Below, piece by piece: positions 12,466 to 29,655 of a stretch of 53,056 nucleotides of DNA. Both the position numbers and the translations under genes were made by a program. Every line of letters begins with the position of its first letter. Positions within the stretch are counted from its first letter, which is position 1. The stretch lies in the IMG/VR virus record IMGVR_UViG_3300033074_002003; one strand, 5' to 3'. Source of the DNA: a virus. The notes under the pieces were generated by a model that was given only the letters and a program-made list of their open reading frames with translations, was not told the DNA's origin and did no database searches.

Positions 12466-15400
12466 ATGTCTCGAGTTCCCAATCGGTTCTTTGGGTTGCA
12501 CGCCCACACTAGCGTGGGTAGCCCGTATGATGGGCTGGGATACCCTCCCGAGCATTTTGATTTCGCCATCCAGAACGGGATGGACGGGATGGCGATCACA
12601 GACCACGGGAACATGAACTCGTTCTCGCACGCCTACATGGCAGCCGAGGCGCTTCACAAGAAGGGCGTACACTTCAAGTACGTTCCTGGGTGTGAACTTT
12701 ACCTGCATCCCGATCTCGAGGAGTGGCGCAAAGAGAAGCTCCTTGACGAAGAGCTCAAAGGGATGAAGAAAGAGGCCGAGAAAGCTCGGAAAGCCTCTCG
12801 AGAGAAGGTTGTGACGCCCATCGAGGTCGAGACAGACGAGGCGGGTGAGGTGATCGATGTCACCAACGCGCTCACGATCGAAAACGAGGATGAATCGAAA
12901 TCGCAGAAGTTCTTCAATCCCATCAATCGCAGGCACCATCTCGTGGTCCTCCCACGAACTTCGGAAGGCCTTCAGAGGCTCTTTAACCTCGTGTCGATGG
13001 GATACATGGATGGCTTCTATCGATTCCCGCGGGTCGATTATTCGATGTTGCGCGCTCTCTCGGAGCGCGAACACTTCATTGTCAGCACCGCTTGTATTGC
13101 GGGCGTCCTGAATTTCGAGGTGCTGTCTGAGCTCCGCGGCGTGCCGTTCGAAGAGCTTCACCCACGTCTCTTGGACGATCCGAACCTCATGGCGCGTGTG
13201 CAGAGTAACATCGGCAACGCAGTCGATCGCCTTGCCGATTCTGTGGGCCGAGACAACCTCTTTGTCGAGGTACAGTTCAACAAGCTCGGTGCGCAGCACG
13301 TCTGCAACCGAGCGCTCATTGAGTTTGCGTCGCGGAACGGGTTCAAGCTCCTCGCGACAGCGGACTCTCACTACTTCAAGCCGGAAGTCTGGAAAGAGCG
13401 CGAGATCTACAAGAAGCTCGGCTGGCTGAACTACACCGACATTGATCCATCGAGCCTGCCAAAGAGCGTCGATGACCTGAAGTGCGAGCTCTACCCGAAG
13501 AACGCCTCCCAGATGTGGGAGGAGTACAAGAAGGGCAAGGGCGACCTCTCTTTCTACGACGATGACACGATCTGCGACGCCATCGAGCGCTCGCACGACC
13601 TCGCGCACCAGATCATCGGCGACATCAAGCCAGATCGCTCGATGAAGCTGCCCTCTTACGTCGTCCCTGAGGGAAAGACGGCAATGAAGGCGCTCATGGA
13701 CGAGTGCAGAAGCGGGATGATTTCGCTCGGTATTGCGAACAAACCCGAATACGTCGAGAGGCTGAAGCACGAGCTCAAAGTCCTCAAAGAACTGAAGGAT
13801 AAGGACAAGGACTTCTCGATCTACTTCCTGACGCTGAAGGCGATCCTTGACGTCGCACGAGAGAAGATGCTTCTCGGTCCCGGCCGCGGGTCGGGTGCCG
13901 GCTCCCTCATCTGTTACTGCCTCAGGATCACAGACGTAGATCCCATCAAGTTCGAGCTTCTGTTCGAGCGATTCCTCAACATTCACCGCGCCGAGCCGCC
14001 CGATATCGACACCGACGTCGCCGATCGAGATATGCTGTTGGGTCTCCTTCGCGAGAGATTCGGCAGTGACAACGTCATCCCAATCTCCAACTACAACACG
14101 TTCAAGCTCAAGACGCTCGTGAAGGACGTCGCGCGGTTCTACGGCGTTCCGTTCGAAGAGGCGGGCGCTGCTACGAAGACGGTCGACGAGGACGTTCGAA
14201 AGGCCGTGCTGAAGCACGGCATGGACAAAAACCTTTTCGTTCTTACGTACGAGGACGCGCTGAAGCACAGCCCGCCGTTTCGCGAGTTCCTCGAGAAGTA
14301 TCCACACGTCGCCGAGCCGATGCAGGTTCTCTTCAAACAGAACAAGGCACTCGGTCGACACGCGGGAGGTGTGATCGTCTCCGAGAAGATCAAGGAGCGT
14401 ATGCCCCTGATCACCTCAAAGGGAGAACCTCAGACACCGTGGGTCGAGGGGCTCAATTACAAGCACCTCGAAGAGTTCGGATGGGTGAAATTTGACCTGC
14501 TCGGCCTCGAAACGCTGCGAATCATTGCGCGAGCGATCGAGCTGATCCTGAAGCGTCGCTGCGGGATCGATCACCCGACCTTTGCGGATGTGAAGAAGTG
14601 GTTCGAAGAGAACATGTCCCCGCAAGTCATCGACTTTGACGATCCACACGTTTACGATCGCGTCTATAATGCTGGCAGGTGGGCGGGCGTATTTCAGCTC
14701 ACCGAATCGGGTGCGCAGAGGTTGTTCACGCGGGCGAAGCCAATGTGTCTCAATGACATTGCGGCTCTCACTTCAGTATACCGTCCAGGACCGCTCGCAG
14801 CGGGCGTCGATGACCTCTACATCGATGCGAAGAACGTGAAGCCGTACGACTGGGGGCACCCACTCATCAACGCGACGCTCGCGCCGACGTACGGGCTCAT
14901 CATCTTCCAGGAGCAGGTGATGCAGCTCGCGCACGAAATCGGCGGGTTCCCACTCGATGAGTGTGACAAGGTGCGCAAGGCGATCATGAAGCGCTCGATC
15001 TCGGGCGGCGACGAGGCGAAGAAGAAGGCCCAGGAGCTCAAAGAGAAGTTCGTGAAGGGCGCAGTCACGAAGGGAATCCCGGAAAGCATCGCCGACAACC
15101 TCTACGAGAAGATCCTGTACTTCGCTGGGTACGGTTTCAACAAGTCGCACGCGATCTCGTATGCAATGGATTCGTTCTGGTGCGCGTGGTTGATGACGTA
15201 CTACGAGCCCGAGTGGCTGTGCGCGTACCTCGAGTCGAAGTCAGGAAATCCTGATGACCGCGCGAAGGCATTCGGCGAGGTGAAGAGCCTCGGGTACGAG
15301 ATCGTTCCGATCGATATCAGCTACGCGACGAGCGGGTGGACGATCATCGACGGCAAGAAGTTCATGCCCTCGATGTCATCGTGTAACGGTGTCGGTGGCA

Positions 15401-16065
15401 CTGCCCTCGAAGAGCTCGAGAGCATGCGACCCTTCTCGTCTCTGAAGGAGATCCTGTGGCACGAGGACGGGAAGTGGCGACCCAGCAAGTTTAACAAGAA
15501 GGCGCTCGAGTCCCTCATCAAAATCAGGGCGTTCGAGTCACTCGATATCGTTGGTGAGGGCAAGCTCTTCGAGTCGTACAAGCAAATGCATGCCGTCCTC
15601 ATCGAAGGGTCCGTAGAGATCAAGAAGAGCGGCAAGCGCGATCCTTTCTGCGGGCAGAAGGCGTTCGAGGCCCTCATTGAATCAACGAAGGGCATCGGTG
15701 AGTGGACCAAACGGGAGCTCGCCGAATTCTCTCGTGAGGTGCTGGGTTCAACTGACGTCGGACTCTTGGTGACACCGGCAACGCAGGACCGCCTCGCCGA
15801 GAAGGGTGTGCGACCCATCGACGCCTGGGACAAGAAGGACCTCTACTGGGCCGTAATCACCGACTGTGTCGTGAAGAAGACGAAGAAAGGCAAGGACTAC
15901 CTCCTCTTCAAGCTGATGGGTGTCGGTGGCAAGGACGTAAAGTGCTTCTGTTGGGGTTGGAAGGGCGACAAGATGTACGTGCCCAACACACCCATCGTCT
16001 TGGAACTAGAGAAGGGCGACTTCGGTTTCTCGACGCAGGCATGGCGCGTGCGGGAGATCAAGTGA
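12466..16065 (+). CDS. dnaE: DNA polymerase III alpha subunit (DnaE-type, PHP + polymerase core)
   Basis: N-terminal PHP 'GLHAHTSVGSPYDGLG', polymerase 'LGPGRGSGAGSLICYCLRITDVDP', 'FNKSHA', 1199 aa. Confidence 0.9.
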   Translation: MSRVPNRFFGLHAHTSVGSPYDGLGYPPEHFDFAIQNGMDGMAITDHGNMNSFSHAYMAAEALHKKGVHFKYVPGCELYLHPDLEEWRKEKLLDEELKGMKKEAEKARKASREKVVTPIEVETDEAGEVIDVTNALTIENEDESKSQKFFNPINRRHHLVVLPRTSEGLQRLFNLVSMGYMDGFYRFPRVDYSMLRALSEREHFIVSTACIAGVLNFEVLSELRGVPFEELHPRLLDDPNLMARVQSNIGNAVDRLADSVGRDNLFVEVQFNKLGAQHVCNRALIEFASRNGFKLLATADSHYFKPEVWKEREIYKKLGWLNYTDIDPSSLPKSVDDLKCELYPKNASQMWEEYKKGKGDLSFYDDDTICDAIERSHDLAHQIIGDIKPDRSMKLPSYVVPEGKTAMKALMDECRSGMISLGIANKPEYVERLKHELKVLKELKDKDKDFSIYFLTLKAILDVAREKMLLGPGRGSGAGSLICYCLRITDVDPIKFELLFERFLNIHRAEPPDIDTDVADRDMLLGLLRERFGSDNVIPISNYNTFKLKTLVKDVARFYGVPFEEAGAATKTVDEDVRKAVLKHGMDKNLFVLTYEDALKHSPPFREFLEKYPHVAEPMQVLFKQNKALGRHAGGVIVSEKIKERMPLITSKGEPQTPWVEGLNYKHLEEFGWVKFDLLGLETLRIIARAIELILKRRCGIDHPTFADVKKWFEENMSPQVIDFDDPHVYDRVYNAGRWAGVFQLTESGAQRLFTRAKPMCLNDIAALTSVYRPGPLAAGVDDLYIDAKNVKPYDWGHPLINATLAPTYGLIIFQEQVMQLAHEIGGFPLDECDKVRKAIMKRSISGGDEAKKKAQELKEKFVKGAVTKGIPESIADNLYEKILYFAGYGFNKSHAISYAMDSFWCAWLMTYYEPEWLCAYLESKSGNPDDRAKAFGEVKSLGYEIVPIDISYATSGWTIIDGKKFMPSMSSCNGVGGTALEELESMRPFSSLKEILWHEDGKWRPSKFNKKALESLIKIRAFESLDIVGEGKLFESYKQMHAVLIEGSVEIKKSGKRDPFCGQKAFEALIESTKGIGEWTKRELAEFSREVLGSTDVGLLVTPATQDRLAEKGVRPIDAWDKKDLYWAVITDCVVKKTKKGKDYLLFKLMGVGGKDVKCFCWGWKGDKMYVPNTPIVLELEKGDFGFSTQAWRVREIK

Positions 16066-19019: not shown

Positions 19020-19994
19020 TCAAAAGTGGCGTGTGCTGTCAAAATATGCAACGCTAGTTAGTGGCAGTGCATCATCATAAGTCACAATAGCGTCATCAGT
19101 GATTCTCAGCAGGTGCAATTTGTGTTCAACGAACCACAGTTCTTGAGCTCGATCTGTCTCATATTTCTTGACGATAGAATTTGATCGAGGATTCATCGAT
19201 TGTCGGTGTTCTTCTAATGGACGATCAAGTCCATGCCAATAGACACCGTCGAGTTGAATGTACGTGCCCGAGCTTCGGATCAGGAAATCGAACGACCATT
19301 GCTTCGGTGTCCCTGGAACGTAGACTTGTCTTTCGATGTCGTCAGCTCCGTATTGAGTACACAAGATCACATAGAGGAGATCTTCAGGTTTTGACTTGCG
19401 ATAAGTCCCATTTCGTTTCATAGTTTCGTGTGCACGTTTCGCGTGAGCAGCCCAATCTACTTTTGATTTGATCTCATCATTTCCAAGTGCAGATTTGTGA
19501 CCGTATCTGGCAAGATTTGTCTTGTGCATTTTCTCGATCGTTGAAGGGAGTTTGGATGTGTGTTCGACACCGTACTCGGCAAGCCAGCGAGCTTTTCTTC
19601 GATTCACGACGTCCGAATTTTTCATTGGGCTAATATCACCATATCGTTCTTCACACGTGTGTCTACGCTTTGTTTCTACTACGTCAGACTGTGTGTGATG
19701 TTCTGTTCCGTATCGAGCGAGTGATGTTTGACGTATCTTTTTGTCTAAGACATTGTTCTTTTTGTGCGCGTGTGAAACACACGTTCGTGAACAGAAATGA
19801 ATTTCTTTCTTCAAAATCGCTGTATAATGTGCAGCGCCCAAGTAATGTCGTTTGCACTGATTGCACTCGAGTTTTACCCGATAGTGTGTGGTTTGTTTAC
19901 CTGTTGGCGTAGTAACGGGCACCTCGATGACTTGGATGATCATTGTTCTGTGACTAAGTAATATGTAGCTAAGCAAAAATTTGCTGAGGAACAC
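19020..19994 (-). CDS. free-standing homing-endonuclease-like protein (Zn ribbon + 'xRYG' repeats + DUF559/Vsr-like PD-(D/E)XK nuclease domain)
   Basis: 'CNQCKRHY...CSRTCVSHAH'; four ~22-aa repeats (ARYGTEHHTQSDVVETK / EERYGDISPMKNSDVVNRRK / AEYGVEHTSK / ARYGHKSALGNDEIKSK); C-terminal 'SFDFLIRSSGTYIQLDGVYWH'; AT-rich island, opposite strand to neighbours. Confidence 0.6.
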   Translation of the reverse strand: MFLSKFLLSYILLSHRTMIIQVIEVPVTTPTGKQTTHYRVKLECNQCKRHYLGAAHYTAILKKEIHFCSRTCVSHAHKKNNVLDKKIRQTSLARYGTEHHTQSDVVETKRRHTCEERYGDISPMKNSDVVNRRKARWLAEYGVEHTSKLPSTIEKMHKTNLARYGHKSALGNDEIKSKVDWAAHAKRAHETMKRNGTYRKSKPEDLLYVILCTQYGADDIERQVYVPGTPKQWSFDFLIRSSGTYIQLDGVYWHGLDRPLEEHRQSMNPRSNSIVKKYETDRAQELWFVEHKLHLLRITDDAIVTYDDALPLTSVAYFDSTRHF

Positions 19995-21297: not shown

Positions 21298-21320
21298 CGC
21301 GATCGTGCTACTTAGTCGTC

Positions 21321-21560
21321 ATGCTAAAAGGACGACTCCCGACGCTTCGTGAGGCACTTCTCGGTGAGGGCGTCCTGACACAGGACGAGTTCTACGTGAA
21401 GCAGATGATCAACATGGCCCTCGGGCAGGGTCTCATGAAAGTCCTACGAGACAGGCACGTTGAGGTAGGTGAGGACGAGATTTTTGATCTCATTCCCGCA
21501 GACGTCCACTCGCAGATTGAACAGTTGGCTCGGGCGGCGGTAGAAAAGCTAAAAGTCTGA
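21321..21560 (+). CDS. hypothetical protein
   Basis: ATG at 21321 after GT stop. Confidence 0.35.
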   Translation: MLKGRLPTLREALLGEGVLTQDEFYVKQMINMALGQGLMKVLRDRHVEVGEDEIFDLIPADVHSQIEQLARAAVEKLKV

Positions 21561-21602
21561 CGGGTCGTGCTACGTTGCACTTCCCTGCTGAAACGGGGAA
21601 AG

Positions 21603-23174
21603 ATGCAGAAAATTACGAAGCGCGATTGGGTGAAGTACTTTCCGTTTGACGCACCCCGAAAGGACCAAGAGGAGTTCATCGACTTCGCCCTGAACGCGTT
21701 CATGCGCGAGGGGAAGCGTTTTGTGATCGGTGAGCTCCCGATGGGCATCGGCAAGTCTGCTGTCGCCGTGACGATCGCGCGCTACCTGGCGGCGACCGAT
21801 CCCCCGACAGAACTAGACGACGAGGGCGAACCAATCGTGACGCGCGGCGCGTACGTGCTCACGACACAGAAGATCCTGCAGGAACAGTACCTCGCCGACT
21901 TCCAGAAGTTCGACATGGAGTCGATCAAGTCGAGCTCCAACTACCAGTGCAGATTCTACACAGAGCAGAGCTGTGCGGAATCACTGAGGGTGCTCACAAA
22001 GCTTGAGAGCCGCATCATGGGCACTCCGTTTTTCAAACAGTGCAAGGGGGCGTGTGCCTACAAGGAAGCCAAACAGGTTTTTCTGAGGGCAGAGATGGGC
22101 TGCACGAACTTCTCGTACTTCCTCGCGGAAACGATGTACGGCGGTGCCCTCGTCCCGCGCCAGCTGCTCGTGATGGACGAGGCTCACAATGTCGAGGGCG
22201 AAGTAGCGAAATTCGTTGCGGTGAAGATCGACCCTACGTCAGATCGCGAGGTCGTGAAACTTCCCGTTCCGTCGTTCGCAGACCAGGGCGCGGCCTTCGA
22301 TTGGGTGCGTGCTACCTACATTCCCGCTGCGTTGAAGATCAAGGACAAGCTCACGAAGAAGATCGAGAAGGCCATCGCGAAAGAGGACAAGCCCTCTCGC
22401 TCGACGATGCGCGCGATGAAGGACAACGAGTCGCTCGACAAGCACATCTGCAAGCTCAATCGGTTCGTTGACTCGTACAACCCTCGCGACTGGGTGTTCA
22501 ACGCGGGAGAAAATACGATTGAGTTTAAGCCCGTTGACATCTCTCGTCACACGGACTTTCACCTCTTCAAGCACTCGCCGAAGATTCTGATGCTGTCGGC
22601 GACGATCCTCGATTTCGATTTCTACTGCGACACGCTTGGTATCGACAAGTCGCAGGCGGCGTTCAGAAGCTTTGACTCGCCGTTTGACGCGGCGAACCGT
22701 CCCATTCACTACGTTCCCGTGGGAAAGATGAACGCCGGTGAGATCGACAAGACGCTGCCCTCGCTCGTCGAGATGGTGCGCGAGATCATGAAGCAGCATC
22801 CCAAAGACAAGGGTGTGATACATTGCTTTGCGGGCGAAACACCAATAAAAGTAGTTGATGGGAGTGTCGTGTGTGAAAAACGAATCGACTCTCTCGTTAT
22901 CGGTGACGCTGTCATTACGTGGAATGAGATGGGCGGAAGGTTTGAGACGAGTTGTGTCGACGCTGTCATCGACAACGGGAATCTCGCGTGTGTTGAGCTT
23001 ACGTTTGACAACGGTCGTACACTTACGTGCACACCAGAACACGAATTCTTGACAAGGAATCGCGGTTGGGTTACTGCAGCTGATCTAGATGAAAAAGACG
23101 ACGTGATTGATACGTTGGATGATACATATATGAATGCCACCTCACATCCTTCCCAAGTTGTTTCGAATCGGTGA
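21603..23174 (+). CDS. Rad3/XPD/DinG-family helicase, N-terminal fragment (motifs I-II + FeS Cys cluster) ending in split-intein N-fragment (IntN, ~116 aa)
   Basis: 'FPFDAPRKDQ', Walker A 'GELPMGIGKS', 'LLVMDEAHN' (DEAH), 4 Cys 'YQCRFY...QSCAES...KQCKGACAYKEAK'; intein block A 'CFAGET' at 22824, block B 'TCTPEHEFLT'; stop after IntN. Confidence 0.8.
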   Translation: MQKITKRDWVKYFPFDAPRKDQEEFIDFALNAFMREGKRFVIGELPMGIGKSAVAVTIARYLAATDPPTELDDEGEPIVTRGAYVLTTQKILQEQYLADFQKFDMESIKSSSNYQCRFYTEQSCAESLRVLTKLESRIMGTPFFKQCKGACAYKEAKQVFLRAEMGCTNFSYFLAETMYGGALVPRQLLVMDEAHNVEGEVAKFVAVKIDPTSDREVVKLPVPSFADQGAAFDWVRATYIPAALKIKDKLTKKIEKAIAKEDKPSRSTMRAMKDNESLDKHICKLNRFVDSYNPRDWVFNAGENTIEFKPVDISRHTDFHLFKHSPKILMLSATILDFDFYCDTLGIDKSQAAFRSFDSPFDAANRPIHYVPVGKMNAGEIDKTLPSLVEMVREIMKQHPKDKGVIHCFAGETPIKVVDGSVVCEKRIDSLVIGDAVITWNEMGGRFETSCVDAVIDNGNLACVELTFDNGRTLTCTPEHEFLTRNRGWVTAADLDEKDDVIDTLDDTYMNATSHPSQVVSNR

Positions 23175-24001
23175 ATACACGCTTGACAAAACAACTCTTA
23201 CGCTACAACATCTCCATCAGCGCAAAGACAGTTCGGGTCGAAAGCGTCGGTTTGAATATCCTTGTGATGATTGTGGGAAGATTTACGTAACGAAGATCAA
23301 AGATGAGATCGGCAAACAACTTCCCTGGATTTGTCGAAGCTGCCGTTGCAAAAAAGAATGGCAAGATCCGCGCTACCGTGAAGCTATTCTAGCTGGATTC
23401 ACAGAGAAAACTCGTGAGGCACTGCGGGAATGTGGGAAGCGAAATATGCACAAGATGTGGAACGATCCCACAAAAAGAGCGGAATTGTGTGCGAAAGGGA
23501 AAGCGAGGGATCCAGAGTGTTATGCTCGCGCTGCACGGAGCTCTAAGAGATCGAACATTAGAATTCACTGGAAAACTGGACAAGAACTAGTTTGCGTCGG
23601 TGGTTATGAACTCGCATTTGTGAATTGGGCGAACGCAAATTTCATTGATTTTGATTGGCAGATTCCTCATGTCATGGAAAATGGGCGAAAGTACATCATA
23701 GATGCGTTCATAAAAACGGGTGAATTTGCAAATACGTGGATCGAAATAAAAGGAACTTGGAACAGGCAGAACGGGCACATCGGAAGAGAGAAGTGGGAAG
23801 CTTTTCACACAAAATACGCAAATTCTGCTTTGTGGATGCAACCGGACCTTGAAAATTTGGGTATTTTAGTTCGTGGTAAACCGAACAAGAGGTGGGAAAG
23901 TGAAATTGATTGCAAGGAAACAGGTGGGTCTGCGACGAGTATTTGACATTACGGTGCGCGGGACGCACACATTTGTCGCCGCTGACGCTGTAGTTCACAA
24001 C
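22824..24001 (+). mobile_element. naturally split intein (IntN 22824-23171, IntC 23900-24001) with intervening free-standing endonuclease gene
   Basis: IntN and IntC in different reading frames separated by stop codon and an independent ORF; IntC 'MKLIARKQVGLRRVFDITVRGTHTFVAADAVVHN|C' resembles DnaE IntC. Confidence 0.75.
23134..23946 (+). CDS. homing-endonuclease-like protein (CxxC Zn finger + PD-(D/E)XK-like core), paralog of 26444..27319
   Basis: 'YPCDDCGKIY...WICRSCRC'; 'RKYIIDAFIKTGEFANTWIEIKG' (D...ExK); AT-rich; start codon uncertain. Confidence 0.5.
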   Translation: MPPHILPKLFRIGEYTLDKTTLTLQHLHQRKDSSGRKRRFEYPCDDCGKIYVTKIKDEIGKQLPWICRSCRCKKEWQDPRYREAILAGFTEKTREALRECGKRNMHKMWNDPTKRAELCAKGKARDPECYARAARSSKRSNIRIHWKTGQELVCVGGYELAFVNWANANFIDFDWQIPHVMENGRKYIIDAFIKTGEFANTWIEIKGTWNRQNGHIGREKWEAFHTKYANSALWMQPDLENLGILVRGKPNKRWESEIDCKETGGSATSI

Positions 24002-24430
24002 TGCCACTCATACAAGATTCTGAACGCTCTTCGCGATGGGATCAAAGACAAGCGCCTCCTCTTTCAGACCTCCGGCGACGTCCGCGACAAGATCCTGCAG
24101 GAACACGCGCTCACCGATGCTCCCACGGTGCTCGTCTCGCCCTCGATGACAGAGGGCGTCGACCTGAAGGACGACCTCTCGCGGTTCCAGATCTTCTGCA
24201 AGGTGCCCTTCCCGTACCTCGGAGACGAGTACTGCAAGCGCAAGATGAGCCGAACACCCGATTGGTACCCGTACGTCACCGCACGCACGATTATCCAGGC
24301 TTCCGGGCGCTCGATCAGGAACTCGTCAGACTGGGCTGTGACGTACATGCTCGACGGGAGCTTTGACTGGTTCTACAGGCAGAACAAGCGTTTCTTCCCG
24401 GAGTACTTCAAGAAGTCCGTACACATGTAA
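23900..24430 (+). CDS. split-intein C-fragment (35 aa) + helicase C-terminal fragment (motifs IV-VI)
   Basis: GAGGTGG SD 4 nt before GTG 23900; 'VVHN|CHSYKIL', 'SMTEGVDL', 'QASGRSIRNSSDW' (motif VI). Confidence 0.75.
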   Translation: MKLIARKQVGLRRVFDITVRGTHTFVAADAVVHNCHSYKILNALRDGIKDKRLLFQTSGDVRDKILQEHALTDAPTVLVSPSMTEGVDLKDDLSRFQIFCKVPFPYLGDEYCKRKMSRTPDWYPYVTARTIIQASGRSIRNSSDWAVTYMLDGSFDWFYRQNKRFFPEYFKKSVHM

Positions 24431-24497
24431 GCTTCCAATTGTTTGATCGCTGAACAAAATTCTTCGCTCCCCATACTCATAAATTGGGGCGTCAAGA

Positions 24498-25160
24498 ATG
24501 CACAGAACGTGGAAGTGGTTGATCGCGCTGTGCATCATTGCCGCGCTTGTCTCGTGTGCGAAGGGAATGAGCACCTCTACGAGGTACCTCACGAACGGGA
24601 AAGGGTACCAGTGTTCGGTCCCGATGCCTATCTTCAAGCGTGCCGTCTACGTTGACGAGAAGTTCACACCCGTACAGGTTGTGCTCCTCTCAGAGGCGAT
24701 GGCAAAGTGGCGCCGCTCGACAGTCGGGTTCGTAGACTACGAGATCAAGGGCAGCTTCAAACACAACAAGTTCGGCAGCCTCCCGGAGTTCTCTAGCGAG
24801 TCTGTGTACATCTTCTACGGTTCGAGTGACGACCCAGAGGGGAAGCGCGATCCGATGATCCTCGGTTCTGCGAATCGGACGTCGATCGATATTGTGATGG
24901 ATCGCATCGTTGACAGTTCACCGTGGGATCGGAAGCTTGTGGGCGTCACAATGCACGAGATCGGGCACACGATCGGGATCGGTCATATCAAGGACGAACC
25001 CGATGCCCTCATGGCACCCATTTGCAGCACGGCCTGCAGCGACCCGCAGATCACGATCTATGACCTGACGGCGATGTGTAACTCTGCGTTCGAGCAGGCA
25101 AAATCAGACGGGTGGACGCACAACCTGCGGTACTCTGTAAATGGTGAGCCGACGCAGTAA
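24498..25160 (+). CDS. metzincin-type zinc metallopeptidase lipoprotein
   Basis: signal peptide + lipobox 'ALVSC'; 'VTMHEIGHTIGIGH' HExxHxxGxxH. Confidence 0.6.
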   Translation: MHRTWKWLIALCIIAALVSCAKGMSTSTRYLTNGKGYQCSVPMPIFKRAVYVDEKFTPVQVVLLSEAMAKWRRSTVGFVDYEIKGSFKHNKFGSLPEFSSESVYIFYGSSDDPEGKRDPMILGSANRTSIDIVMDRIVDSSPWDRKLVGVTMHEIGHTIGIGHIKDEPDALMAPICSTACSDPQITIYDLTAMCNSAFEQAKSDGWTHNLRYSVNGEPTQ

Positions 25161-26443: not shown

Positions 26444-27319
26444 TTGTTAGACGGTGATGACACAACTGATTCATCGAACATAGTTAAAGCTATGAGCAAA
26501 TTTGTTGGTCACTTTAAGTGTGAATTTTGTCTGGAAGACTTCGAAAAAGAAGTGCATTCGAGTGCGAAGAAAATGCCACGATTTTGCAGCAAATCGTGTG
26601 GTAGCAAGTGGCTACACGCAAATGGCAAAAAGTGTACACTAAACAGCAAGACGACATACGAATGGTGGATTGAAAAACACGGACAAGAAGAAGCTGATAG
26701 ACGATTTAGTGCTTGGAGACAAAAGATCTCAGAGCGTACGTCTGGCGAAAACAATGCGATGTTTGGTAAGCACGCACACACTCACGGGTTGAAAAAATAC
26801 GCGTTCGAAAAGACGGGTAAGTCACTCGAACAGATCCATGGTGTTGAGCTAGCAAAAGATATCAAGCATAGAGTCTCAGTGAGTATGACGGGCGAAAACA
26901 ATCCTGCGTACGGGAAAGTATATCCAAATGCGGGACGATCTGTCAAGGGTCACTATAAAGGCATCTTCTTCCGAAGTCTATTTGAGTACTCGTTCTTGAA
27001 GCACCTGGAGTCAATAGGAGTCGAGTTGACAGACGTAAAGTGTGAATCGTTCAGGATTCCGTATGCTGAGGGCAGAACGTACATACCTGATTTTTATGTT
27101 CCTGAACACAAAACTGTTTACGAGGTGAAACCCTCGTCTTGGCACACTAACACAACAGTGATTGCAAAATGTGAAGCTGCAAAGAGATTTCTGGCTGAAA
27201 AGGGACTTGAGTTCAAGATGGTCACCGAGCTTGATTTCCCGAAGATACGCTTCGACGAAGCACGCAAAGATCCAAACGTAGTTTGGAAGGAGAAGTCATT
27301 TGAGCACTTCAAGAAGTAA
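26444..27319 (+). CDS. free-standing homing-endonuclease-like protein (Zn finger + PD-(D/E)XK), paralog of 23134..23946
   Basis: 'FKCEFCLEDF...RFCSKSCGSKW'; 'RTYIPDFYVPEHKTVYEVKPSSW'; AT-rich island. Confidence 0.55.
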   Translation: MLDGDDTTDSSNIVKAMSKFVGHFKCEFCLEDFEKEVHSSAKKMPRFCSKSCGSKWLHANGKKCTLNSKTTYEWWIEKHGQEEADRRFSAWRQKISERTSGENNAMFGKHAHTHGLKKYAFEKTGKSLEQIHGVELAKDIKHRVSVSMTGENNPAYGKVYPNAGRSVKGHYKGIFFRSLFEYSFLKHLESIGVELTDVKCESFRIPYAEGRTYIPDFYVPEHKTVYEVKPSSWHTNTTVIAKCEAAKRFLAEKGLEFKMVTELDFPKIRFDEARKDPNVVWKEKSFEHFKK

Positions 27320-27848
27320 GATCATCATACTCGACGGACCCGATCGCTGCGGCAAAACAGAGATTGGCAAAGCTCTCGCACGAATACTTGATTGTAATTA
27401 CTTCAAAAATGACGTCGAGCGCCAGATGTTCGGCTCTTCAGAAGAGTACTTCCTAGGCGCGATTCGCTACGGTCTCCCGCACATTCTCTCTCTTCTGAGA
27501 CAGTCTGAGTTCGGGTTGGTCCTCGATCGTAGCTACCCATCAGAGTGGGTATATTCTCGAGCTTTCAATCGGCCCACAGACGAAGACGCAATCAGGCTGT
27601 GCGACGCTCAGTTCGCAGAGCTCGGCGGGCACGTCGTGATCACGAGGAGGAAATCTTACGAGGGGATCGTAGACGACACACACCCTCACCTCGTCAACAC
27701 AGAGATGCTGAAGAAGCTCGACGGGCTTTACGAGGAGTTCGCTGCGCAGTGTATTGCTCCCTGTCACACGATTTTCGTTGACGACGAGAATTTGAATCGA
27801 GAAGTCGATGAGATTCTCTCCAAGATCGAAGGATGGACAGATGACTGA
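27300..27848 (+). CDS. P-loop deoxynucleoside/deoxynucleotide kinase (Tmk/dNK-like)
   Basis: 'IIILDGPDRCGKTEIGKALARIL' Walker A in dNK/Tmk context, 182 aa. Confidence 0.55.
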   Translation: MSTSRSKIIILDGPDRCGKTEIGKALARILDCNYFKNDVERQMFGSSEEYFLGAIRYGLPHILSLLRQSEFGLVLDRSYPSEWVYSRAFNRPTDEDAIRLCDAQFAELGGHVVITRRKSYEGIVDDTHPHLVNTEMLKKLDGLYEEFAAQCIAPCHTIFVDDENLNREVDEILSKIEGWTDD

Positions 27849-28089
27849 CGAGGGCGACGCAGACTCTGGGATGAGGGAAGCACTTGAGATGTGCTTCAAC
27901 ATGGCATATGGGACGGCGATCGATATCGCTGAGAAGCAACCGGGCGTGAGCGCGCTCTACGTCGAATCGCAGGCGAAGACTGTGATGCGCGCCGCGCTTC
28001 AGGCGACGGGTCTCTTCTCGCCGAGCGAGATCGACATGCACGTTGATTCGATCACCGTGAGAAATGCTGCAGAGAGGGATTCGTCGTGA
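27808..28089 (+). CDS. hypothetical protein
   Basis: 93-aa ORF overlapping kinase 3' end; weak. Confidence 0.25.
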   Translation: MRFSPRSKDGQMTDEGDADSGMREALEMCFNMAYGTAIDIAEKQPGVSALYVESQAKTVMRAALQATGLFSPSEIDMHVDSITVRNAAERDSS

Positions 28090-28940
28090 GCGAATACGTC
28101 AGGTCACAAGACGCGTGCGCTTTCATTGAGTCGTTGGAGGACGCGTCTGTCGGTCTTGTCCTGATTGACCCGCCGTACTACGGCATCGTTGACGATTCGT
28201 GGGACAACCAGTGGGCGTCAGAGGACGACTACGTGAGCTGGCTGTCTGTCATGTGTTACGCCGCGCGAAAGAAGCTGACGCCGACCGGATCGCTGCTCGT
28301 ATTCGGCGGTGTTGGGAAGCACGGTTCGCACCCGTTCTTCAGGGTCATTTCGGAGCTTGAGAAGAAGTTCCACTTTCGCAACCTGATCACGTGGAAGAAG
28401 AGGCGTGCCTACGGGAAGAAGTTCAACTATCTTCATTGTCGGGAGGAAATTGTTTGGTATTCCAAATCAAGTGTAGAGTCAGAAGTGACTTTTAACATTC
28501 CATATCTCACTGAAAAGCGCGGGTATGCAGGATTTAACAAGAAATATCCAGCGAAAAGTCCCTATTATCGAGTCTCTAACGTCTGGGCAGATATTGGCGA
28601 ACTAATGCGTCCCAAGCGTACTGCTGAAAAACCCATACCCCTTCTGGAGAGGTTGATACTCACACATTCAAATCCCAATGATCTTGTTGTTGATTTTTTT
28701 GCAGGGACGGGCTCCACGGGCGTGGCGGCACTGAAGAACGGTCGCAGATTTCTTGGCTGTGATATGGACAACACTGCTGTACAAATGGCAAATGCGCGCT
28801 GCATTTCTGTTTACGATTCAACTAGTTATCATCATGGCGCGAACACAGAAGACAGTAATTTATGTGTATCTGATCCTATGCAAGATCAACAACAAGAGAT
28901 ATGTGGGGATCACTGCAAAAACAGTACAGAAAAGATTTAA
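28086..28940 (+). CDS. DNA methyltransferase, beta-class (DPPY first; N6-adenine or N4-cytosine)
   Basis: 'LVLIDPPYYG' motif IV near N-terminus, 'VVDFFAGTGSTG' motif I near C-terminus; 3' ~35 codons overlap the GIY-YIG gene. Confidence 0.7.
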   Translation: MSEYVRSQDACAFIESLEDASVGLVLIDPPYYGIVDDSWDNQWASEDDYVSWLSVMCYAARKKLTPTGSLLVFGGVGKHGSHPFFRVISELEKKFHFRNLITWKKRRAYGKKFNYLHCREEIVWYSKSSVESEVTFNIPYLTEKRGYAGFNKKYPAKSPYYRVSNVWADIGELMRPKRTAEKPIPLLERLILTHSNPNDLVVDFFAGTGSTGVAALKNGRRFLGCDMDNTAVQMANARCISVYDSTSYHHGANTEDSNLCVSDPMQDQQQEICGDHCKNSTEKI

Positions 28941-29655
28941 GCGTCACCTACGTGACGCTGCGAACGGGTGTCAAAACGCACTGCATCGAGCGATACGAGC
29001 ACATGGAGTTGAGAATTTCGAGTGTCAATCGCTCGAAATTTGTTCGTCTTGGGAAGAAGCCTGTCAACGTGAAATAGTGTTGATTCGTGAACTTCAAACA
29101 CGTGTCGAACAACACGGTTACAACATGACTGACGGAGGCGAAGGGGGATGGGGATTGCAGTGGTCGCTAGAAGCTCGAGCAAGACAGAGTGCTATTCACA
29201 AAGGGTTACACACTCGAGATAAGCTGAGCTCTGAAACGTTGAAGAAGATGAGTGATGCTCGAAAAGGTAAACCGATGAACGATGAGCAAAAACGAAAACT
29301 TTCGATCTGGAACACTGGTCGCAAACACACTGAAGAAGCTAAGCAAAAGATGGCTGATTCACATCGTGGCTCTAAACGCACAGAAGCTACGAAACAGAGA
29401 ATGCATGAAAGCAGTCCACACAAAAAACGTGTTGTGCAATTTGCTACTGATGGAACGACATTGTCTGTGTACCCATCTATGAAAATTGCTGCGCGTATCA
29501 CAGGCGTTGCACACGCAAATATTAGTGCATGCTGTCATGGCAGGAGACCACGCGCTGGTGGATTTGGATGGTGCTTTGAAAATATCAATACACTGACTGA
29601 GCAAGTCATAGAATTAGTCAATTCGAGGTGTGTGGAAGCTGCGGGAGGTGCGTGA
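28834..29655 (+). CDS. GIY-YIG homing endonuclease with NUMOD3-like repeats and C-terminal DNA-binding module
   Basis: 'VIYVYLILCKINNKRYVGITAK' GIY-YIG; repeats 'SETLKKMSDARKGKP / DEQKRKLSIWNTGRKHT / EEAKQKMADSHRGSKRT'; 'VVQFATDGTTLSVYPSMKIAARITG'; AT-rich. Confidence 0.75.
   Translation: MARTQKTVIYVYLILCKINNKRYVGITAKTVQKRFKRHLRDAANGCQNALHRAIRAHGVENFECQSLEICSSWEEACQREIVLIRELQTRVEQHGYNMTDGGEGGWGLQWSLEARARQSAIHKGLHTRDKLSSETLKKMSDARKGKPMNDEQKRKLSIWNTGRKHTEEAKQKMADSHRGSKRTEATKQRMHESSPHKKRVVQFATDGTTLSVYPSMKIAARITGVAHANISACCHGRRPRAGGFGWCFENINTLTEQVIELVNSRCVEAAGGA

Follow-up and report, generated by a model that had tools for sequence, protein, structure and literature searches.

A probable fractured gene in a large uncultured phage: a Rad3/XPD-type helicase with a predicted trans-splicing split intein and a free-standing endonuclease gene

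The helicase gene described here lies at positions 21603-24430 of the IMG/VR virus record IMGVR_UViG_3300033074_002003, the whole 53,056-nucleotide (nt) stretch of which is called the window below. We consider it very probable (about 0.85) that this Rad3/XPD-type helicase gene of a large uncultured phage is a 'fractured gene', the two products of which are joined by protein trans-splicing, with a homing endonuclease gene between the halves of a split intein. As read from the sequence, a mobile cassette lies within the conserved GIIH/C.SY element of the helicase motif IV region (the slash marks the insertion point). The cassette is a class-1 intein, into which a free-standing endonuclease gene has been set at the canonical endonuclease-insertion loop, so that the intein too is broken. 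Three proteins are encoded separately: the helicase's N-terminal part (N-extein) with the N-terminal half of the intein (IntN), the endonuclease, and the C-terminal half of the intein (IntC) with the helicase's C-terminal part (C-extein). Architecture of this kind is already known from fractured genes. What is new is the host enzyme and the endonuclease family, and the main value of the locus is an allelic series of four states, in which the origin of split inteins is testable within one system.

Results

Layout of the locus

Three consecutive open reading frames (ORFs) on the plus strand, in frames 0, 1 and 2, fill the 2828 nt at 21603-24430. They are composed of the following parts.

21603-23174, plus strand: ORF1, frame 0; the helicase's N-terminal part followed by the 116-amino-acid (aa) IntN
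21603-22823, plus strand: N-extein; 407 aa of a Rad3/XPD/DinG-type superfamily 2 helicase with motifs I-III and a four-Cys segment, ending ...KDKGVIH
22824-23174, plus strand: IntN; 116 aa and a stop codon; Cys1 at 22824, block B with T70/H73 at 23031-23042
23134-23946, plus strand: ORF2, frame 1; ATG start; 270 aa; free-standing putative homing endonuclease gene
23889-23894, plus strand: Shine-Dalgarno (SD) sequence GAGGTG, read from the sequence, 5 nt 5' of the IntC GTG and within the endonuclease coding sequence
23900-24430, plus strand: ORF3, frame 2; GTG start; IntC, Cys+1 and the helicase's C-terminal part; stop codon 24428-24430
23900-24001, plus strand: IntC of 34 aa from a GTG start, with blocks F and G and a terminal His33-Asn34 (Asn codon 23999-24001)
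24002-24430, plus strand: C-extein; the Cys+1 residue, a further 141 aa from the helicase C-terminal domain (CHSYKI..., with motifs IV-VI) and the stop codon

The best start of ORF1 is the ATG at 21603, with GGGGAAAG upstream, and its stop is the TGA at 23172-23174. ORF2 overlaps both neighbours, ORF1 over 41 nt and ORF3 over 47 nt. IntN opens with CFAGET and its block B reads TCTPEH, while the IntC of ORF3 is MKLIARKQVGLRRVFDITVRGTHTFVAADAVVHN, which ends in VVHN and is followed by the Cys+1 codon at 24002. A preliminary description of this region had proposed a helicase ORF that runs into an IntN and then stops in frame 0, a zinc-finger/PD-(D/E)XK ORF in frame 1, and an ORF in frame 2 in which an SD-preceded GTG opens an IntC followed by Cys and helicase motifs. 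All three were borne out: CFAGET begins at nt 22824, the ORF at 23134-23946 carries a CxxC...CxxC element and a C-terminal nuclease core, and the GTG at 23900 and the Cys at 24002 precede a Helicase_C_2 domain. The length of 35 aa given there for IntC had to be corrected to 34 residues.

The two helicase parts

The N-extein matched the Pfam families ResIII and DEAD_2 and contains the DEAH box (VMDEAHN). It has four Cys residues (YQC...QSC...KQCKGAC), also found in the related helicases P0063-P0066, that may correspond to the four-Cys Fe-S cluster domain expected between motifs Ia and II in helicases of this type. The C-extein matched Helicase_C_2 with E = 1.6e-17. Positions 4-434 of phrog_2488 (DNA helicase) corresponded to ORF1 aa 15-420 and positions 431-576 to ORF3 aa 31-174. 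As the match resumes at position 431 after ending at 434, the helicase halves abut. The earlier suggestion that a functional helicase is made from two polypeptides is supported. These matches confirm the organisation of the two helicase parts as far beyond chance, and it recurs in independent assemblies.

The joined exteins have 549 aa, compared with 543-550 aa in uninterrupted relatives. The spliced sequence was aligned through the junction with the XPD of T. acidophilum (5h8w; ...ivyfpSY...), and FANCJ was also matched. We take this XPD segment to be the motif IV region of XPD-family helicases. The closest helicases, P0063-P0067, are uninterrupted proteins of 543-546 aa that are 64-68% identical to the N-extein and read ...GIIH-[T/A/V]H.Y... 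across the insertion site. The +1 residue is thus Thr, Ala or Val in P0063-P0067, whereas it is Cys in every intein-bearing allele; a native Cys is found at this site in many more distant members, and most of the wider helicase family has Cys at +1. The Thr, Ala or Val of the closest helicases may reflect site immunity or relaxation after precise loss of an intein.

The two intein halves

All residues of a class-1 intein are present: Cys1, T-x-x-H, His-Asn and Cys+1. Pfam models of Intein_splicing (E = 4e-6) and Hint matched IntN, and positions 133-155 of Intein_splicing matched IntC. The residues C1, T70 and H73 are invariant across 19 IntN or cis-intein sequences. Among the best 120 matches of each search, we counted 23 N-half clusters and 50 C-half clusters. 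Every one of these 50 starts with a Met-[KR]-[ILV] IntC and has HN followed by Cys, and the IntC is 34-35 aa long in 44 of them. The split-intein reading of the preliminary description is supported by the location of the halves on separate polypeptides and by the catalytic residues kept in all 50 IntC clusters; a missing HN or Cys+1, named there as a ground for rejection, is excluded, as the IntC of the window ends in HN and Cys+1 follows.

A phmmer comparison of the fused IntN+IntC sequence with solved inteins gave Ssp DnaB (8e-8), NrdJ-1 (1e-7), DnaE (~5e-5) and gp41-1 (7e-3). The fused intein is therefore closer to DnaB and NrdJ-1 than to DnaE, which had been singled out as a special match. 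The 'striking' likeness reported for the DnaE IntC amounts to 12/34 (35%) identity to the Npu DnaE IntC, an ordinary intein-level homology.

The AlphaFold2 model of the fused IntN+IntC, for which the alignment consisted of fused or cis rows and IntN rows only, had a mean predicted local distance difference test (pLDDT) score of 86 and a predicted template modelling (pTM) score of 0.79. Foldseek matched it to the DnaB, NrdJ-1, RecA and DnaE inteins with TM scores of ~0.8 and E ~1e-10. IntN and IntC are thus predicted by the model to form a HINT fold together. The structured core of IntN extends to ~23123 (...VIDTLDD), and its last ~16 residues, TYMNATSHPSQVVSNR, arise from reading on into the endonuclease gene. 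Only this tail is disordered in the model (residues 100-113, pLDDT <50), and the rest of IntN is at ~90. In alignment, the split falls where DnaE is split and where the cis relatives have a short loop.

It should be noted that two MAFFT alignments (A4 and A5) were discarded, as the isolated IntC was set on the middle of IntN, or the reverse, because of the internal pseudo-twofold symmetry of the HINT fold. This symmetry is a trap when split-intein fragments are aligned. Family-specific hidden Markov models of IntN and IntC found no other intein in the window or beside the nuclease-domain relatives L009-L028.

The net charge is -12 for IntN and +4 for IntC. Such complementary charges would promote association anyway, and the two halves might assemble non-covalently, the intein fragments acting as affinity domains only and no peptide bond being made, as happens with the split NrdA of phage Aeh1, a protein that has no intein. 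Fragmented phage enzymes are reported to function without ligation (PMC3045599). However, Cys1, T-x-x-H, His-Asn and Cys+1 serve splicing chemistry only, and they are kept under purifying selection in 50/50 IntC clusters and 19/19 IntN or cis-intein sequences. The contrast at the +1 position, with T, A or V in the closest uninterrupted helicases and Cys in every intein-bearing allele, points the same way. We regard non-covalent assembly as improbable.

Relatives of the locus

Three relatives from three other samples (L005-L007) are collinear with the locus over 2828 nt, with 93 substitutions and no indel. L005, which is 96.7% identical, was used as the reference for the substitution counts. 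The exteins differ from it by 52 synonymous and 0 non-synonymous substitutions (43/0 in the N-extein and 9/0 in the C-extein). The counts are 7 synonymous and 5 non-synonymous in IntN, 15 and 7 in the nuclease, and 3 and 0 in IntC, with ratios of non-synonymous to synonymous change (pN/pS) of 0.20 in IntN and 0.12 in the nuclease. All parts of the locus are under purifying selection. These counts do not fit a decaying pseudogene, that is, a helicase inactivated by a mobile insertion, the pieces of which are drifting. The phage does tolerate many endonuclease-gene insertions in this region, but the exteins have taken up no non-synonymous change against 52 synonymous ones, both halves have kept their full length in every lineage over a protein divergence of 42-60%, and neither a dN/dS near 1 nor disabling mutations were seen in the relatives. 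Decay is very unlikely.

The same three genes were found in four further lineages, 42-60% identical at the protein level: L001 (a 244-kb contig), L002-L004 (a 174-kb contig and two other assemblies), L008 (IMG/VR) and L034. Altogether, five lineages from at least eight samples carry the three ORFs. The frame sets differ, being 0/1/2 in the window and 2/0/1, 0/0/2 and 1/2/1 in the other lineages (the set of L034 was not tabulated). In all five lineages each intein half has its own translation signals, a stop after IntN and an SD with GTG or ATG before IntC. The starts are conserved, with the nuclease beginning M-[SPA]-x-H-x-L and IntC beginning M-K-[LI], and the stops after IntN are real.

The junctions themselves vary. 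Between the IntN stop and the endonuclease start, the relatives have spacers of 3 nt (L002), 1 nt or 80 nt (L034), or another overlap. The 3' end of the endonuclease gene extends over the IntC start by 47 bp in the window and L001, by 32 bp in L034, and by 4 or 1 bp in L002 and L008. At the IntC start, relatives have ATGA or TGATG stop/start overlaps where the window has its SD. The IntN stop of relatives comes directly after ...DT..T(Y) and the nuclease stop at ...LGIL. Both stops are lost in the window and in L001, so that each ORF continues into the gene that follows; this accounts for the two overlaps and for the 16-aa tail of IntN.

Three successive frames with overlapping ORF ends would be expected if two +1 frameshift errors had broken up a contiguous intein with an in-frame nested endonuclease, and the preliminary description had named such an artefact, hiding a continuous in-frame intein, as what would overturn the split. 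It is excluded by the indel-free relative and the divergent frame sets. Over the 2828 nt, an independent assembly shows 93 substitutions and not one indel; the divergent lineages have varied frame sets, real stops, and conserved IntC and endonuclease starts; loci without the endonuclease gene are still split. We therefore hold a sequencing or assembly error to be extremely unlikely. The overlaps at both junctions of the window would also suit programmed recoding, in which two +1 shifts or read-through yield a single long precursor that holds the nuclease inside a cis-splicing intein. Against this, the frame relations and junction sequences vary among lineages, L002 has an in-frame TAA followed by an ATG 3 nt on, L034 has the 80-nt spacer, and neither junction has a structured element. 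Recoding thus has a very small chance of being correct, and separately translated halves of a split intein are the reading that we retain.

Among GenBank phage records, none was found with the fractured helicase, with an endonuclease related to that of the window over its full length, or with a closely related intein. An apparent IntC match in Tunturiibacter phage Tunturi_5 was rejected, as the 540-aa helicase there is uninterrupted. The helicase of Vibrio phage K391 is contiguous, with 900 aa.

The endonuclease encoded by ORF2

The N-terminus of the ORF2 protein has beta-hairpins and then a four-Cys zinc ribbon (C44, C47, C67 and C70; CxxC...CxxC, nt 23263-23343). A helical middle part and a C-terminal PD-(D/E)xK core at ~nt 23551-23868 (E159, D190, E204 and K206) follow, and the last ~25 residues are read-through into IntC. 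E159, D190, E204 and K206 are invariant. ORF2 belongs to no Pfam or PHROG family, and only the fold search was informative, with PD-(D/E)xK proteins as its matches. ORF2 is predicted to be a canonical PD-(D/E)xK nuclease (E...D...ExK, TnsA-like fold) with an N-terminal four-Cys zinc ribbon. It has no GIY-YIG domain (no Pfam match at E <= 0.1). An EDxHD/Vsr-like identity was excluded, as the motif is E...D...ExK with an invariant Lys and no sequence match was obtained even at E = 10.

A word-indexed search gave 61 homologs of ORF2. The ORF2 profile reached 647 representative clusters, nearly all of them via the C-terminal ~110 residues, which stand behind variable N-termini. Such a modular architecture is typical of homing endonucleases. 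The full-length relatives (P0001-P0003, P0006 and P0007; 47-56% identical) sit between the halves of the same helicase in every case examined, and so does a 27%-identical homolog in L034. As the position between the helicase halves is constant even at 27% identity, the association is old. No BLAST similarity was found between ORF2 and two other ORFs of the window that resemble homing endonuclease genes (HEGs), at 19020-19994 and 26444-27319, or the nested insert of P0080 described below.

Four allelic states at one site

Four states of a single helicase site occur in the databases.

Empty alleles: P0063-P0067, the closest uninterrupted helicases
Cis mini-inteins: P0076 (688 aa) and P0090 (674 aa)
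Split, with the endonuclease gene: the window, L001-L008, L034 and L035
Split, without the endonuclease gene: L029 (5528-5586, 59 nt between the halves) and L030 (5455-5501, 47 nt), with IntN and IntC intact

The cis intein of P0090 and the split intein of L034 (1143-4034) are identical at 113/130 positions (87%), whereas their N-exteins are identical at 193/397 (49%). The two inteins differ essentially only at the position of the endonuclease gene. As near-identical inteins are found in diverged exteins, the intein has moved between helicase genes and the transition between cis and trans is recent. The cassette of the window is compositionally foreign, with G+C contents at third codon positions (GC3) of 0.45 (IntN), 0.43 (nuclease) and 0.53 (IntC), whereas the two exteins have 0.78 and 0.84.

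P0080, a 901-aa protein from a 30-kb ENA contig, is a helicase N-half that ends in the same IntN and carries a second, contiguous intein in the DEAH box (DE/C...SN/CHN, with slashes at the insertion points). This second intein has a large nested insert with Cys pairs and a possible nuclease-like segment.

Other endonuclease genes in the window

The window comes from an uncultured large phage with a DnaE-type polymerase at 12466-16065 (phrog_405); the contigs that carry relatives measure 174-244 kb. The window has at least three further HEG-like genes. The first, at 26444-27319 on the plus strand, is a free-standing NUMOD3 + TnsA-like_N endonuclease gene, and the 96-97% identical L005 and L007 carry a 350-aa GIY-YIG-type ORF at this place; the non-homologous block spans 26451-27703 of the window and 5772-6831 of L007. 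The presence of different endonuclease ORFs in close relatives means that, at a single intergenic site, a homing endonuclease gene has been exchanged for a different one.

The second gene, at 28753-29655 on the plus strand, is homing-endonuclease-like, with GIY-YIG and NUMOD1/NUMOD3 domains (Pfam E = 1.7e-14), and lies over the 3' end of an N6_N4 methyltransferase gene (28086-28940). L005 lacks a counterpart of the segment 28419-29618, and its methyltransferase gene (246 aa) directly abuts an epimerase gene. Since these two HEG-like genes are replaced or present/absent relative to 96-97%-identical relatives, the traffic of endonuclease genes is active in the population.

The third, at 19020-19994 on the minus strand, is an intergenic 324-aa ORF with DUF7487 repeats (E = 1.9e-15) and, as read from its sequence, a Vsr-like C-terminus (...FDFLI...YIQLDGVYWHG). 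It is also present in L005 and L006 and is probably another free-standing endonuclease. An extra 181-aa ORF lies between the helicase C-half and an M10-like peptidase gene in L005 (7312-7857) and L006. This ORF is absent in the window (equivalent position 24430-24451) and in L007, an indel polymorphism directly 3' of the fractured gene.

Discussion

We infer splicing from the known chemistry of inteins and from relatives that have been tested, among them DnaE, gp41-1 and NrdJ-1. The acidic IntN and the basic IntC would associate and fold into one HINT domain. Trans-splicing would then proceed through an N-S acyl shift at Cys1, trans-thioesterification to Cys+1, cyclisation of Asn34 and an S-N shift. 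The expected product is a 549-aa helicase with the junction ...GVIH-CHSY... and the length of the uninterrupted relatives. Judged from its context, ORF2 would act as a homing endonuclease that cuts cassette-free alleles (intein-less or endonuclease-less) in co-infecting phages, and the cassette would be copied into the cut alleles via recombinational repair. The foreign GC3, an intein far more alike than the exteins in the P0090/L034 pair, and the empty alleles in the closest helicases are consistent with homing. Because the C-half has its start codon and ribosome site within the endonuclease gene, at the 3' end, its expression would be tied to the invading element and depend on it. Dassa et al. 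(2009, PMC2677866) proposed a C-half start and ribosome site inside the endonuclease gene for an invading element.

Several results weigh against a functional, mobile fractured gene. The endonuclease gene is present in all of L005-L007, without presence/absence polymorphism at this short evolutionary distance. The 16-aa read-through tail of IntN is unusual. Expression of the endonuclease may be low or coupled, because ORF2 overlaps ORF1 by 41 nt and its ribosome site is weak. A promoter and terminator scan of 21300-24700 gave no more signals than shuffled sequence, and folding detected no stable RNA hairpin at either ORF junction (z = +1.8 and +0.4). The endonuclease has no sequence-level tie to characterised nucleases in Pfam, PHROGs, phmmer searches or profile comparisons with PDB sequences.

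A broader and more tentative idea, to which we give clearly less than even odds, concerns the origin of the split. A previously undescribed lineage of endonucleases, combining a zinc ribbon with a canonical PD-(D/E)xK domain, might home on the insertion loop of mini-inteins and convert cis inteins into trans ones; where such an endonuclease was later lost, the genes would stay permanently split. As part of the same idea, the helicase site could represent a living 'gene-breaking' pathway, because all four states coexist today in related phages, including the 87%-identical cis/trans pair.

The locus adds a Rad3/XPD-type helicase to the enzymes known as fractured and a canonical PD-(D/E)xK protein to the endonuclease types inside split inteins. 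As one site shows four alleles, some with nearly identical inteins in divergent exteins, the helicase family offers a natural series on which the origin of split inteins and endonuclease recognition can be tested. In addition, at least 50 diverged Cys1/Cys+1 split-intein pairs with a short (34-aa) IntC are candidate orthogonal trans-splicing tools.

Comparison with known systems

The preliminary description had called the arrangement rare, but the architecture has been known since Dassa et al. (2009, PMC2677866), and its helicase version is common in metagenomes. The 'fractured genes' of that study include gp41-1, gp41-8, NrdJ-1, NrdA-2, IMPDH-1 and others; the hosts are gp41, IMPDH, DnaE, NrdA, NrdJ, ligase, terminase and one unknown, and the endonucleases reported belong either to the GIY-YIG type or to the Vsr-like one. 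No published Rad3- or DinG-type split-intein or fractured helicase was found in the literature, the incomplete coverage of which makes this weak evidence of absence.

The window shares with those genes the phage setting, a gene of DNA metabolism broken by a split intein, and a free-standing endonuclease gene on the same strand between the halves. The 3' end of the endonuclease gene overlaps the IntC start by 6-69 bp in 15 Dassa loci and by 47 bp in the window, and IntC has 33-54 aa in the Dassa loci and 34 aa here. Variants without the endonuclease gene occur in both (gp41-7 in the Dassa set; L029 and L030 among our relatives). NrdJ-1 is among the best sequence and structure matches to the intein of the window, and the polarity of an acidic IntN and a basic IntC is shared by 3/5 modelled Dassa pairs. 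In contrast, the Rad3/XPD/DinG-type helicase is outside the Dassa host list, and the endonuclease of the window is neither GIY-YIG nor Vsr-like. The Dassa loci have a 27-51-nt spacer before the endonuclease gene, a descriptive feature of those loci and not a mechanistic one, whereas the window has a 41-nt overlap. IntN has 88-105 aa in the Dassa loci and 116 aa in the window, longer because of the read-through tail. Hairpins lie upstream in the Dassa loci, and RNA folding of both junctions showed none in the window.

The DnaE split inteins (Ssp and Npu) have the same class-1 chemistry (Cys1, TxxH, terminal Asn and Cys+1), the same split loop, an acidic IntN with a basic IntC, and the HINT fold (TM ~0.8 to the model of the window intein). 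They differ in that the DnaE halves are encoded far apart and no endonuclease gene separates them. Over the fused alignment the intein of the window is 27% identical to Npu DnaE, and structure alignments with DnaE inteins gave 20-22%. The penultimate IntC residue is His in the window and Ser in the Npu sequence quoted in the preliminary description. In the Ssp DnaE IntC this residue is Ala.

TnsA of Tn7 is 18% identical to ORF2, and the Pfam TnsA-like model did not match ORF2. TnsA acts in a transposase complex, whereas ORF2 is a stand-alone gene within an intein. I-Bth0305I and the EDxHD endonucleases (PMC3239194) are, like the predicted ORF2 protein, bipartite phage endonucleases with an N-terminal DNA-binding module and a C-terminal restriction-enzyme-like fold, and they are free-standing or intron-borne and found inside fractured genes. 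They differ in their EDxHD motif with a His general base, compared with E...D...ExK in the window, and in having NUMOD repeats in place of the zinc-ribbon N-terminus.

Finally, the split nrdA gene of Aeromonas phage Aeh1 (PMC3045599) is likewise a phage enzyme gene cut by a free-standing homing endonuclease gene (mobE), the 3' end of which overlaps the downstream half. It differs in having no intein, and the Aeh1 halves are reported to assemble without ligation.

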